64,000 bases of DNA from assembly GCF_003790525.1 (NCBI RefSeq), contig NZ_CP033635.1. One strand, written 5' to 3'. Of the stretch, positions 20,809-46,573 are shown piece after piece (within the stretch, counting starts at the first letter, position 1; every line of letters begins with the position of its first letter). The notes beneath the pieces were generated by a model. The model was not told the DNA's origin. It worked only from the letters and a program-made list of their open reading frames with translations, and made no database searches. Source of the stretch: Escherichia coli. Its GTDB lineage: Bacteria > Pseudomonadota > Gammaproteobacteria > Enterobacterales > Enterobacteriaceae. The position numbers and the translations under genes were made by a program.

Positions 20809-21072
20809 ATATTGCCGGATAAATTAAACGCCTCTGTCAGAAATGATGGGGGCGTTTTTATTTTGCGAGCAGCATTCCTGATTTTAAACGTGAACGTCGT
20901 TGGAAGAATTAACAGGTATAGAATGGCGTTGGGTGCTTGAGGCTGTCTGGCGTTAAGCATTCGCGAGGTTCCAGATGGACAAAAGCCCCAGGCGATATTT
21001 CTATCAACCTGAGGCCAGCGTTCGAACCCAAACAATTCGAATGTTAGTCTCTTCTTTGCAGGGAGGCAAGAC

Positions 21073-21225
21073 ATGCTGACAAAATATGCCCTTGTGGCAA
21101 TCATAGTGCTGTGTTTTACAGTACTGGGATTCACGCTGATGGTAGGCGACTCGTTGTGTGAGTTGAGTATCAGAGAACGTGGTATGGAGTTTAAGGCGGT
21201 TCTCGCTTACGAATCGAAGAAGTAG
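21073..21225 (+). CDS. Hok/Gef-family type I toxin (50 aa)
   Basis: Below the ORF-track length cutoff; ATG at 21073 preceded by GGGAGG (21061-21066); [50 protein letters not shown] has the Hok family TM helix plus LCE...AYES signature. Confidence 0.7.
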
Positions 21226-40183: not shown

Positions 40184-41545
<1,362 letters not shown>

Positions 41546-41684
41546 AACGTGAGGAAATACCTGGATTTTTCCTGGTTATTTTGCCGCAGGTCAGCGTATC
41601 GTGAACATCTTTTCCAGTGTTCAGTATGGTGCCTTGCACGGTAATTATGTCACTGGTTATTAACCAATTTTTCCTGGGGGATAA

Positions 41685-42824
41685 ATGAGCGCGGGAAGCC
41701 CAAAATTCACCGTTCGCCGCATTGCGGCTTTGTCACTGGTTTCGCTATGGCTGGCAGGCTGTTCTGACACTTCAAATCCACCGGCCCCGGTCAGCTCCGT
41801 TAATGGCAATGCGCCTGCAAATACCAATTCTGGTATGTTGATTACGCCGCCGCCGAAAATGGGGACGACGTCTACAGCGCAGCAACCGCAAATTCAGCCG
41901 GTACAGCAGCCACAAATTCAGGCCACTCAACAACCGCAAATCCAGCCGGTGCAGCCAGTAGCTCAGCAGCCGGTACAGATGGAAAACGGACGCATCGTCT
42001 ATAACCGTCAGTATGGGAACATTCCGAAAGGCAGTTATAGCGGCAGTACCTATACAGTGAAAAAAGGCGACACACTTTTCTATATCGCCTGGATTACTGG
42101 CAACGATTTCCGTGACCTTGCTCAGCGCAACAATATTCAGGCACCATATGCGCTGAACGTCGGTCAGACCTTACAGGTGGGGAATGCTTCCGGTACGCCA
42201 ATCACTGGCGGAAATGCCATTACCCAGGCCGACGCAGCAGAGCAAGGAGTTGTGATCAAGCCTGCACAAAATTCCACCGTTGCTGTTGCTTCGCAACCGA
42301 CAATTACGTATTCTGAGTCTTCGGGTGAACAGAGTGCTAACAAAATGTTGCCGAACAACAAGCCAACTGCGACCACGGTCACAGCGCCTGTAACGGTACC
42401 AACAGCAAGCACAACCGAGCCGACTGTCAGCAGTACATCAACCAGTACGCCTATCTCCACCTGGCGCTGGCCGACTGAGGGCAAAGTGATCGAAACCTTT
42501 GGCGCTTCTGAGGGGGGCAACAAGGGGATTGATATCGCAGGCAGCAAAGGACAGGCAATTATCGCGACTGCAGATGGCCGCGTTGTTTATGCCGGTAACG
42601 CGCTGCGCGGCTACGGTAATCTGATTATCATCAAACATAATGATGATTACCTGAGTGCCTACGCCCATAACGACACAATGCTGGTCCGGGAACAACAAGA
42701 AGTGAAGGCGGGGCAAAAAATAGCAACCATGGGTAGCACCGGAACCAGTTCAACACGCTTGCATTTTGAAATTCGTTACAAGGGGAAATCCGTAAACCCG
42801 CTGCGTTATTTGCCGCAGCGATAA
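41685..42824 (+). CDS. nlpD: murein hydrolase activator lipoprotein NlpD (LysM plus M23 domains)
   Basis: 379 aa; lipobox LAGCS; Q/P-rich repeats; C-terminal M23 domain. Confidence 0.9.
42286..42314 (+). promoter_or_regulatory. candidate major rpoS promoter inside nlpD (-35 TTGCTT, 17-bp spacer, -10 TATTCT)
   Basis: Hexamers at 42286-42291 and 42309-42314 put the transcription start about 566 nt upstream of the rpoS ATG, consistent with the long rpoS 5' UTR described in the literature. Confidence 0.5.
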
Positions 42825-42886
42825 ATCGGCGGAACCAGGCTTTTGCTTGAATGTTCCGTCAAGGGATCACGGGTAGGAGCCACCTT

Positions 42887-43879
42887 ATGAGTCAGAATAC
42901 GCTGAAAGTTCATGATTTAAATGAAGATGCGGAATTTGATGAGAACGGAGTTGAGGTTTTTGACGAAAAGGCCTTAGTAGAAGAGGAACCCAGTGATAAC
43001 GATTTGGCCGAAGAGGAACTGTTATCGCAGGGAGCCACACAGCGTGTGCTGGACGCGACTCAGCTTTACCTTGGTGAGATTGGTTATTCACCACTGTTAA
43101 CGGCCGAAGAAGAAGTTTATTTTGCGCGTCGCGCACTGCGTGGAGATGTTGCCTCTCGCCGCCGGATGATCGAGAGTAACTTGCGTCTGGTGGTAAAAAT
43201 TGCCCGCCGTTATGGCAATCGTGGTCTGGCGTTGCTGGACCTGATCGAAGAGGGCAACCTGGGGCTGATCCGCGCGGTAGAGAAGTTTGACCCGGAACGT
43301 GGTTTCCGCTTCTCAACATACGCAACCTGGTGGATTCGCCAGACGATCGAACGGGCGATTATGAACCAAACCCGTACTATTCGTTTGCCGATTCACATCG
43401 TAAAGGAGCTGAACGTTTACCTGCGAACCGCACGCGAGTTGTCCCATAAACTGGACCATGAACCAAGTGCGGAAGAGATCGCAGAGCAACTGGATAAGCC
43501 AGTTGATGACGTCAGCCGTATGCTTCGTCTTAACGAGCGCATTACCTCGGTAGACACCCCGCTGGGTGGTGATTCCGAAAAAGCGTTGCTGGACATCCTG
43601 GCCGATGAAAAAGAGAACGGTCCGGAAGATACCACGCAAGATGACGATATGAAGCAGAGCATCGTCAAATGGCTGTTCGAGCTGAACGCCAAACAGCGTG
43701 AAGTGCTGGCACGTCGATTCGGTTTGCTGGGGTACGAAGCGGCAACACTGGAAGATGTAGGTCGTGAAATTGGCCTCACCCGTGAACGTGTTCGCCAGAT
43801 TCAGGTTGAAGGCCTGCGCCGTTTGCGCGAAATCCTGCAAACGCAGGGGCTGAATATCGAAGCGCTGTTCCGCGAATAA
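42887..43879 (+). CDS. rpoS: RNA polymerase sigma factor RpoS (sigma-38)
   Basis: Start taken at [21 protein letters not shown] (330 aa); sigma-70 family regions 2-4. Confidence 0.95.
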
Positions 43880-43894
43880 GTAAGCATCTGTCAG

Positions 43895-43931
43895 AAAGGC
43901 CAGTCTCAAGCGAGGCTGGCCTTTTTCTTTT
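43895..43931 (+). terminator. rho-independent terminator downstream of rpoS
   Basis: 13-bp stem AAAGGCCAGTCTC / GAGGCTGGCCTTT (one mismatch) with a 4-nt loop, followed by TTTCTTTTATTT. Confidence 0.6.
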
Positions 43932-43998
43932 ATTTGGGAGTCGGTGTGTTTTGTCGCCTGGATAAGACACGTCAGCGTCCCACCCGGCAATCAACATC

Positions 43999-44439
43999 CT
44001 ATTTGCTCATCATCTTGCGCACCAGCTGCATAAACAGCTCCTGCTCTTCTGCACTCAAACGCCCCAAAAATTCCTCATCCACACTGTCACCAATCGGTAT
44101 CGCCGCAGCAAGTACCTTTTCTCCTTCGGCAGTCAGCCAGACAAAGCGTCGCCGCTTATCAGCAGAGTCATGTTCTCGTCTGACTAAGCCACGATTTTCC
44201 ATTCGTGCCAACATTTCTGCCAGCGTTGCTTTGGTGCTGACGGCTGCTTCTATCAGTGCCACCTGTTCGATACCAGGTTTATCAGCAATGGCGCGCATCA
44301 CCGCGTACTGTGGTTTGGTCAGATCAGGTAACTCGTGCTGCCAGCGAGCCGTGTGCTGCTGAAAAAGCTGTCGTAACTGATGGAACGCTTTATTTCGTAA
44401 CGCCATGTAAACTCCGGGCAAACTATCTGCCGCTATCAT
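43999..44439 (-). CDS. MarR/SlyA-family transcriptional regulator
   Basis: 146 aa; winged-helix MarR-type sequence; divergent from the decarboxylase cluster. Confidence 0.8.
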   Translation of the reverse strand: MIAADSLPGVYMALRNKAFHQLRQLFQQHTARWQHELPDLTKPQYAVMRAIADKPGIEQVALIEAAVSTKATLAEMLARMENRGLVRREHDSADKRRRFVWLTAEGEKVLAAAIPIGDSVDEEFLGRLSAEEQELFMQLVRKMMSK

Positions 44440-44552: not shown

Positions 44553-45146
44553 ATGAAACTGATCGTCGGGATGACAGGGGCTACCGGTGCGCCTCTTGGG
44601 GTGGCATTACTGCAAGCGCTGCGGGAGATGCCGAATGTCGAGACTCATCTGGTGATGTCGAAGTGGGCGAGAACCACCATTGAACTGGAAACGCCTTACA
44701 GCGCTCGCGATGTTGCTGCCCTCGCAGACTTCAGCCATAACCCGGCGGATCAGGCGGCGACCATCTCCTCAGGTTCCTTTCGTACCGACGGCATGATCGT
44801 TATTCCGTGCAGTATGAAAACGCTCGCCGGTATCCGTGCCGGTTACGCCGATGGCCTGGTGGGGCGCGCGGCGGACGTCGTGCTCAAAGAAGGCCGCAAA
44901 CTGGTGCTGGTGCCGCGTGAAATGCCGCTTAGCACAATCCATCTCGAAAATATGCTCGCACTTTCGCGCATGGGCGTGGCGATGGTGCCGCCGATGCCTG
45001 CCTTTTATAACCATCCCGAAACGGTAGATGACATTGTCCACCACGTGGTAGCCCGCGTGCTGGATCAATTTGGCCTCGAACATCCTCACGCCAGGCGCTG
45101 GCAAGGATTGCCGCAGGCCCGGAATTTTTCTCAGGAGAATGAATAA
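44553..45146 (+). CDS. ecdB: UbiX-family flavin prenyltransferase (aromatic acid decarboxylase B subunit)
   Basis: 197 aa; UbiX/Pad1-type N-terminus MKLIVGMTGATGA. Confidence 0.8.
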   Translation: MKLIVGMTGATGAPLGVALLQALREMPNVETHLVMSKWARTTIELETPYSARDVAALADFSHNPADQAATISSGSFRTDGMIVIPCSMKTLAGIRAGYADGLVGRAADVVLKEGRKLVLVPREMPLSTIHLENMLALSRMGVAMVPPMPAFYNHPETVDDIVHHVVARVLDQFGLEHPHARRWQGLPQARNFSQENE

Positions 45147-46573
45147 TGGCATTTGATGATTTACGCAGCTTTTTACAGGCGCTCGACGACCATGGGCAAT
45201 TGCTGAAAATCAGCGAAGAGGTGAACGCAGAACCGGATCTGGCAGCCGCAGCCAACGCCACCGGGCGTATCGGCGACGGCGCGCCCGCGCTGTGGTTTGA
45301 CAATATTCGCGGCTTTACCGATGCCCGCGTGGCGATGAACACCATCGGTTCCTGGCAGAACCACGCGATTTCCCTCGGCCTGCCGCCAAATACCCCGGTT
45401 AAAAAACAGATCGATGAGTTTATCCGCCGCTGGGACAACTTCCCGATAGCCCCGGAACGCCGAGCCAATCCAGCCTGGGCGCAGAACACCGTCGATGGCG
45501 AAAAGATTAACCTGTTCGATATCCTGCCGCTGTTTCGTTTAAACGACGGTGATGGCGGTTTCTATCTCGACAAAGCGTGCGTGGTTTCCCGCGATCCGCT
45601 CGACCCGGATAACTTCGGCAAGCAGAACGTCGGTATCTACCGCATGGAAGTGAAGGGCAAACGTAAGCTCGGCCTGCAACCGGTGCCGATGCACGATATC
45701 GCGCTGCATCTGCATAAAGCGGAAGAGCGCGGTGAAGATCTGCCGATTGCCATCACCCTCGGTAACGATCCGATCATCACCCTGATGGGGGCCACGCCGC
45801 TGAAATATGATCAGTCCGAGTACGAAATGGCGGGCGCGCTGCGCGAAAGTCCGTACCCGATTGCCACCGCCCCACTGACCGGTTTTGATGTACCCTGGGG
45901 CTCGGAAGTGATCCTCGAAGGGGTTATCGAAAGTCGTAAACGTGAAATCGAAGGGCCGTTCGGTGAGTTTACCGGGCACTACTCCGGCGGGCGCAACATG
46001 ACCGTGGTGCGCATCGATAACGTCTCTTATCGCAGCAAACCCATTTTTGAATCGCTCTATCTCGGGATGCCGTGGACGGAAATCGACTACCTGATGGGGC
46101 CAGCCACCTGCGTGCCGCTGTATCAGCAACTGAAAGCCGAGTTCCCGGAAGTGCAGGCGGTAAACGCCATGTACACCCACGGCCTGCTGGCGATTATCTC
46201 CACCAAAAAACGCTACGGTGGCTTTGCCCGCGCGGTGGGCCTCCGTGCGATGACCACGCCACACGGTCTGGGCTATGTGAAGATGGTGATTATGGTCGAT
46301 GAAGACGTTGATCCGTTCAACCTGCCGCAGGTGATGTGGGCGCTCTCTTCGAAAGTGAACCCGGCAGGGGATTTGGTGCAGTTGCCGAATATGTCCGTGC
46401 TGGAACTCGACCCTGGCTCAAGTCCGGCGGGGATCACCGACAAGCTGATTATCGACGCCACCACGCCTGTCGCCCCGGACAACCGTGGTCACTACAGTCA
46501 GCCGGTGGTGGATTTACCGGAAACCAAAGCCTGGGCTGAAAAACTGACCGCTATGCTGGCCGCACGTCAATAA
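45146..46573 (+). CDS. ecdC: UbiD-family aromatic acid decarboxylase (C subunit)
   Basis: 475 aa; UbiD-family size and sequence; start overlaps the upstream stop. Confidence 0.8.
   Translation: MAFDDLRSFLQALDDHGQLLKISEEVNAEPDLAAAANATGRIGDGAPALWFDNIRGFTDARVAMNTIGSWQNHAISLGLPPNTPVKKQIDEFIRRWDNFPIAPERRANPAWAQNTVDGEKINLFDILPLFRLNDGDGGFYLDKACVVSRDPLDPDNFGKQNVGIYRMEVKGKRKLGLQPVPMHDIALHLHKAEERGEDLPIAITLGNDPIITLMGATPLKYDQSEYEMAGALRESPYPIATAPLTGFDVPWGSEVILEGVIESRKREIEGPFGEFTGHYSGGRNMTVVRIDNVSYRSKPIFESLYLGMPWTEIDYLMGPATCVPLYQQLKAEFPEVQAVNAMYTHGLLAIISTKKRYGGFARAVGLRAMTTPHGLGYVKMVIMVDEDVDPFNLPQVMWALSSKVNPAGDLVQLPNMSVLELDPGSSPAGITDKLIIDATTPVAPDNRGHYSQPVVDLPETKAWAEKLTAMLAARQ

Follow-up and report, generated by a model that had tools for sequence, protein, structure and literature searches.

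In enterobacteria, the level of RpoS, the general stress sigma factor, is set by the rpoS promoter and its leader, which together serve as a classic model system for sRNA-activated translation. The major rpoS promoter lies inside nlpD and starts transcription 567 nt before the ATG codon, a distance given as secondary citations in PMC10948607, PMC8545128, and PMC6537650. The promoter of Escherichia coli K-12, PrpoS (also called rpoSp), was defined by Lange, Fischer and Hengge-Aronis in 1995, as cited in PMC10948607. Further starts have been reported near the rpoS ATG codon and upstream of nlpD, together with a low-level nlpD-rpoS transcript (PMC10948607). According to the literature, the rpoS promoter is controlled by ArcA, CRP, and ppGpp, and ArcA and CRP sites are found in and around it. 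In Yersinia pestis, the rpoS promoter inside nlpD (Txn4) is positioned 547 bp upstream of rpoS, where the start was determined by primer extension, and deletion of the Txn4 promoter region lowers RpoS (PMC2736372). Conservation of the promoter in several species was shown in the same work (PMC2736372, Fig. S1). As for the leader, its (AAN)4 and A6 motifs have been described for binding to the distal face of Hfq (PMC3753642; PMC3783183), and the action of sRNAs and Hfq is reported not only to activate translation but also to stabilise the mRNA and to counter premature Rho termination in the leader.

Here, we describe the corresponding region in a 64-kb stretch of E. coli DNA, which is referred to as the window and whose numbering is used throughout. 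An earlier note on this DNA had placed an rpoS promoter within the nlpD coding region, followed by a long leader regulated by sRNAs.

Results

Organization of the nlpD-rpoS region

Over 41500-44000, the sequence is the same as in E. coli SMS-3-5 and other strains (100% identity), and 5421 of the 5426 complete E. coli genomes contain this stretch. In the ORF list, pcm (40919-41545, + strand) is followed by nlpD (41685-42824, +), which contains the promoter along with the greater part of the leader and whose coordinates are also supported by the RefSeq annotation of identical genomes. The rpoS gene (42887-43879, +) is intact and encodes 330 amino acids, 329 of which are the same as in K-12 RpoS. 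The one difference is at residue 33 (42983-42985), which is Glu33 here and Gln33 in K-12 MG1655, all the remaining residues being identical. The rpoS start codon is the ATG at 42887-42889, in agreement with the annotated start at 42887. Since the stop codon of nlpD ends at 42824, the gap between the two genes is 62 bp (42825-42886), exactly as given in the earlier note.

An in-frame ATG at 42851 makes the mechanically derived rpoS ORF 12 codons longer than the annotated gene. Many Enterobacteriaceae conserve the peptide-like stretch of these 12 codons (42851-42886), owing to its overlap with the part of the leader around the ribosome site, which is itself conserved.

The surroundings of the two genes should also be noted. 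Just past the rpoS stop codon, at 43893-43926 (+), is a strong hairpin with a T run that resembles an intrinsic terminator. A sub-threshold match to ctRNA_p42d on this hairpin (23.8 bits against a gathering score of 50), the sole Rfam hit around nlpD and rpoS, was rejected as a chance resemblance between hairpins. Downstream of rpoS, a MarR-family regulator is encoded on the − strand (43999-44439), beyond which lie ORFs of 197 amino acids (44553-45146) and 475 amino acids (45146-46573). Judging from the sequences alone, we take these two ORFs to be UbiX-like and UbiD-like decarboxylase genes. In K-12, ygbN directly follows rpoS; it is absent from that position here, indicating that the region 3' of rpoS is strain-variable. 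On the other side, the sok antitoxin RNA family (RF01794) matches 20931-21088 (+) with 111 bits against a gathering score of 59, suggestive of a hok/sok-type toxin-antitoxin locus in the chromosome some 21 kb upstream of rpoS.

Promoter hexamers and the K-12 promoter

An exact string search for TTGCTT-17 bp-TATTCT gives a single occurrence in the window, inside nlpD. The −35 hexamer TTGCTT occupies 42286-42291, the 17-bp spacer 42292-42308, and the −10 hexamer TATTCT 42309-42314, all on the + strand, and the −10 hexamer coincides with Tyr-Ser codons of NlpD. The position within nlpD (42286-42314) proposed in the earlier note is thus exact, and the string is unique. However, the match to the consensus is only 7/12, with 3/6 for TTGCTT against TTGACA and 4/6 for TATTCT against TATAAT. 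The window has 6.7 equally good pairs per kb per strand, and the coding strand of nlpD contains five of them. Though the exact string is unique, its promoter-likeness judged by the hexamers is therefore not above chance. A consensus promoter scan of 41500-44000 with a threshold of 9/12 reported no promoter; a scan with this threshold can neither confirm nor reject a promoter of 7/12. The promoter of K-12 matches the sigma-70 consensus equally weakly, so that a weak match speaks neither for nor against an rpoS promoter. Given such weak hexamers, the earlier call leaned on the known architecture of the locus and needed independent evidence. The promoter status of the site is based on orthology, conservation, and the literature, and not on the hexamers.

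Alignment of the region with MG1655 is free of gaps and indicates that the promoter and the leader are orthologous to those of K-12, with few synonymous differences. The segment 42184-42568 is identical except at position 42290, which is T here (TTGCTT) and G in K-12 (TTGCGT). This substitution is synonymous for NlpD, changing an Ala codon between GCT and GCG. An exact copy of the 71-mer around the promoter is carried by 325 of the 5426 complete E. coli genomes, while 3447 genomes are approximately one base off somewhere in the 71-mer, as is K-12 BW25113. From these counts, the −35 hexamer TTGCTT is most likely a minority allele in E. coli and is not the K-12 sequence. TTGCTT is the commonest form of the −35 hexamer among the sampled Enterobacteriaceae. 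Different species have T, G, or A at the base equivalent to 42290, and the substitution is therefore not expected to alter function.

Conservation across Enterobacterales

To sample species, one genome per species was searched with a fully degenerate back-translation of a 13-residue C-terminal peptide of NlpD, which gave 120 loci; a degenerate peptide pattern of this kind introduces no bias on synonymous sites or on the promoter region. A codon-level alignment was built from the 72 sequences, including the window, that have a complete nlpD and a recognisable rpoS start. The alignment spans Escherichia, Salmonella, Klebsiella, Yersinia, Serratia, Erwinia, Pantoea, Photorhabdus, Providencia, Morganella, and other genera.

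The TTG of the −35 hexamer is invariant in all the 72 species, and the spacer is 17 bp in every one of them, even though it lies within an otherwise variable, indel-rich linker of NlpD. The −10 hexamer is TATTCT in 61 species, TATCCT in eight, and TATGCT in three, so that TATNCT is retained in 72/72. The codons should be noted here, since they separate the constraint on the DNA from that on the protein. The Val codon that supplies the TT of the −35 hexamer is GTT in 70 of 70 cases, and the two exceptions, which encode Ile, are ATT, retaining TT. Likewise, changes of Ser to Pro or Ala in the −10 hexamer are encoded by CCT or GCT, retaining CT.

Normalised synonymous-codon entropy was calculated over 220 columns with a conserved, degenerate amino acid, and its mean for the gene is 0.68. 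At GTT (the Val codon of the −35 hexamer) and at ACG-TAT-TCT (the −10 hexamer and the preceding base), the entropy is exactly 0, a value not matched by any of 200000 sets of four columns drawn at random, with no correction for phylogeny. The four further pairs in nlpD that score 7/12 served as a control: only 18-43 of the 71 species keep any one of them at its position, compared with 71/71 for the rpoS pair, again with no correction for phylogeny. These observations indicate that the promoter bases are under order-wide purifying selection at synonymous sites, independently of the protein sequence of NlpD, as judged from the aligned sequences.

Could the hexamer pair nevertheless be a chance match, with rpoS transcribed from the promoters upstream of nlpD as a bicistronic mRNA or from starts proximal to the ATG codon? 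The match of only 7/12, the density of such sites, and the silence of the scanner at its threshold would fit this explanation, as would the low-level nlpD-rpoS transcript and the ATG-proximal starts in the literature. We consider it very improbable, however, because the promoter bases and the spacer are kept at synonymous sites in 72/72 species, unlike the four control pairs, and because the site is orthologous to the mapped promoter of K-12 and the primer-extension start of Y. pestis lies at a near-equal distance. Moreover, the other transcripts coexist with the promoter and do not replace it. That the conservation of 42285-42314 instead reflects another overlapping function, such as a protein-binding site, a structure of the nlpD mRNA, or a codon requirement of NlpD, is scarcely credible, since, although conservation alone names no function and ArcA and CRP sites are reported at the promoter, the conserved bases follow the sigma-70 pattern (TTG, then a spacer fixed in length but not in sequence, then TA..CT with the fourth base of the −10 hexamer unconstrained), which a structural or codon-usage constraint would not predict, and start sites map at the element in two genera.

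The site is best regarded as the rpoS promoter, and this reading may have a consequence for NlpD. We lean toward the view that the downstream promoter, and not NlpD function, fixes part of the NlpD sequence, namely the Val residue, the Tyr-Ser pair, and the indel-free stretch of 29 bp, all of which are held throughout Enterobacterales in a linker that otherwise evolves fast. If so, this would be a clean natural case of a host gene whose coding sequence has been dictated by a regulatory element throughout a very long evolutionary history.

Other features in the alignment are described here as separate observations. At the beginning of nlpD, codons 2-5 (41688-41699; AGC .. GGA AGC) are also constrained, AGC, GGA, and AGC having an entropy of 0-0.05 across the 72 species. 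This constraint may arise from translation initiation of nlpD or from a nearby promoter or leader element of nlpD. A TGTGA sequence at 42251-42255, at about −62 from the start, may be a CRP half-site; in the alignment, it is retained only in Escherichia and Citrobacter.

Transcription start site and extent of the leader

When the published distance of 567 nt, known from secondary citations, is transferred to the window, the transcription start would be at 42320 (+), within ±1 nt. This position is 6 nt past the −10 hexamer. With a start 6-7 nt past the −10 hexamer, the leader would be 567-566 nt long and have 504-505 nt within nlpD. The earlier note had predicted a leader of about 566 nt consisting of approximately the last 500 bp of nlpD and the intergenic gap, which agrees with the published distance within one base. 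The base at the predicted start is T, which is not a preferred initiating base. Considering the other reported starts, the start at about 42320 is the major but not the sole start of rpoS.

The leader (42320-42886, +) accordingly comprises 567 nt, with 505 nt in nlpD and the 62-nt spacer, as placed by coordinates and by alignment with K-12. Its last base, 42886, is also where the interval given in the earlier note ends. It differs from K-12 at four synonymous positions only (42569, 42593, 42704, and 42725). From 42726 to 42960, through the first 74 nt of rpoS, the sequence is identical to that of K-12, and experiments in K-12 on the sRNA pairing hub, the spacer, and the ribosome site therefore apply directly. 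Across the species, the predicted leader length is 516-661 nt, with a median of 558 nt.

Part of this variation lies between the hub and the ribosome site, where a GC-rich insertion of 45-95 nt is found in ten Enterobacteriaceae species, including Klebsiella oxytoca, Kosakonia, Phytobacter, Siccibacter, and Pseudocitrobacter (loci L009, L018, L022, L027, L030, L032, L035, L059, L096, and L119; columns 98-191 of alignment A2). The insertion, which appears partly palindromic by eye and might be a REP-like element, brings the leader to a length of 607-661 nt.

Hfq motifs and predicted sRNA pairing in the leader

A motif search locates the (AAN)4 motif, AACAACAAGAAG, at 42691-42702 (+) and the A6 motif, AAAAAA, at 42715-42720 (+), both upstream of the hub. 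The former belongs to the class of Hfq distal-face sites and the latter is the second A-rich Hfq site (PMC3753642; PMC3783183).

The sRNA pairing hub, which forms the 5' arm of the predicted inhibitory hairpin, is assigned to 42758-42794 (+), about −129 to −93, on the basis of duplex energies and low synonymous entropy. The synonymous entropy is 0.73 in the 5' part of the leader and falls to 0.28 over 42759-42821. Pairing was evaluated by a pairing-score local alignment of the leader and by hub-restricted duplexes, with the sRNA sequences taken from the MG1655 annotation. DsrA forms a duplex of −31.8 kcal/mol with the hub (42760-42791), and none of 1000 random segments was as good. It is also the top match in the unrestricted search of the whole leader, with a local alignment score of 42 against a background maximum of 35. 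The duplex between RprA and the hub has an energy of −28.1 kcal/mol (42758-42794), a value equaled by 4 of 1000 random segments, and RprA does not rank first in the unrestricted search of the whole leader. The 3' part of ArcZ gives a best hub duplex of only −16.8 kcal/mol (42759-42789), and 804 of 1000 random segments were as good, though a core of approximately 8-9 bp (GGGAAAUC) can be aligned by hand. The probable pairing of ArcZ with the hub rests on published experiments and on the 100% identity of the hub to that of K-12, and not on the duplex energy. The description of the leader as an Hfq-dependent target of DsrA and RprA in the earlier note is supported by the above-background complementarity of the hub and by the presence of both A-rich motifs.

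RNAduplex calculations with the full-length sRNAs and the whole leader gave unphysical duplexes with long loops that were no better than the background, and these were discarded. Rfam contains no family for the rpoS leader, and neither dsrA, rprA, and arcZ (for which Rfam reported no sRNA gene) nor hfq is located within the window. Among the 5426 complete E. coli genomes, dsrA is found in 5338, rprA in 5423, and arcZ in 5416. The three genes are near-universal in the species, and their presence in this strain is very likely on that account.

Predicted inhibitory hairpin

In the minimum-energy folds (−135 to +20; 42747-42911), 42761-42793 pairs with 42869-42902 (+). The latter segment is the 3' arm of the hairpin and includes both the Shine-Dalgarno sequence AGGAG (42875-42879) and the AUG codon (42887-42889). 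An internal stem is predicted in the nlpD-rpoS spacer at 42828-42860 (+), in which GGCGGAAC (42828-42835) pairs with GTTCCGTC (42853-42860).

The E. coli fold was examined across 71 species. It is 85% paired, compared with 39-45% after a shift of the partners by 1-3 columns, and it should be considered that the tested fold is the minimum-energy structure of E. coli, itself one of the aligned sequences, which favours that structure. Helices 2-4 of the 3' arm are paired at 84-95% against the same 39-45% for slid partners. The internal stem (helix 7) exhibits compensatory changes at seven of eight pairs across the 71 species. The hub and its partner are almost invariant; they thus provide evidence by conservation and little covariation of their own. 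The long-range hairpin is missing from the RNAalifold structure of the 71-species alignment, since the insertions in the ten species disrupt the alignment of the spacer.

Discussion

The positions of the elements, the orthology to K-12, the selection on the promoter bases, the complementarity to DsrA and RprA, the Hfq motifs, and the conserved fold were all observed here, and they point to the major sigma-70-type rpoS promoter in nlpD with a 567-nt leader controlled by sRNAs, to which we assign a probability of about 97%. The exact start base, the use of sigma-70, the control by ArcA, CRP, and ppGpp, and the action of the sRNAs would be as in K-12, Salmonella, and Yersinia, by analogy with the experiments in those organisms.

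On this basis, the following mechanism can be proposed. RNA polymerase would start at about 42320 inside nlpD to give a monocistronic rpoS mRNA with the 567-nt leader. In the leader alone, the segment from about −129 to −93 would pair with the region of the Shine-Dalgarno sequence and the AUG codon, keeping translation low. Hfq bound to the (AAN)4 and A6 motifs would accelerate the annealing of DsrA, RprA, and processed ArcZ to the hub, and this pairing would free the ribosome binding site.

The rpoS promoter and leader are textbook material, and no new biology is claimed for them. Because the promoter and its conservation in several species were already known, only the scale and the quantification at synonymous sites would be new. 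What appears mildly new is this order-wide quantification, together with the indication that an intragenic promoter of weak consensus seems to dictate residues of the NlpD linker. The cross-species numbers also suggest that such promoters can be recognised by conservation at synonymous sites where hexamer scoring fails. For the strain itself, the result means a normal rpoS control region, with an intact rpoS (E33), a K-12-like leader, and a common variant of the −35 hexamer.

The Y. pestis promoter, one of the closest described systems, has the same architecture. The two other Yersinia species in the alignment have TTGATT-17 bp-TATTCT at the homologous codons and a predicted leader of 543-544 nt. 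The Y. pestis promoter is probably the same element, as judged from its location at essentially the same distance and from the conserved element in these two species. The differences are the −35 hexamer TTGATT, in which an Asp codon replaces the Ala codon, and a leader shorter by about 20 nt; the arrangement of the nlpD promoters upstream also differs in Y. pestis.

PrpoS of K-12 is another of the closest systems. The promoter in the window shares its position in nlpD, the −10 hexamer TATTCT, the 17-bp spacer, and the distance of 567 nt to the ATG codon, and the flanks are identical for at least 100 bp on each side except for one base. That base is the difference in the −35 hexamer, TTGCGT in K-12 and TTGCTT in the window. 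The leader resembles those of E. coli K-12 and Salmonella, in which DsrA, RprA, and ArcZ activate translation with Hfq through an anti-antisense mechanism, in having the same hub, spacer, Shine-Dalgarno sequence, start codon, (AAN)4 and A6 motifs, and predicted hairpin. The four synonymous substitutions that distinguish it from the K-12 leader are situated in its 5' and middle parts, and none of them falls in a named element.
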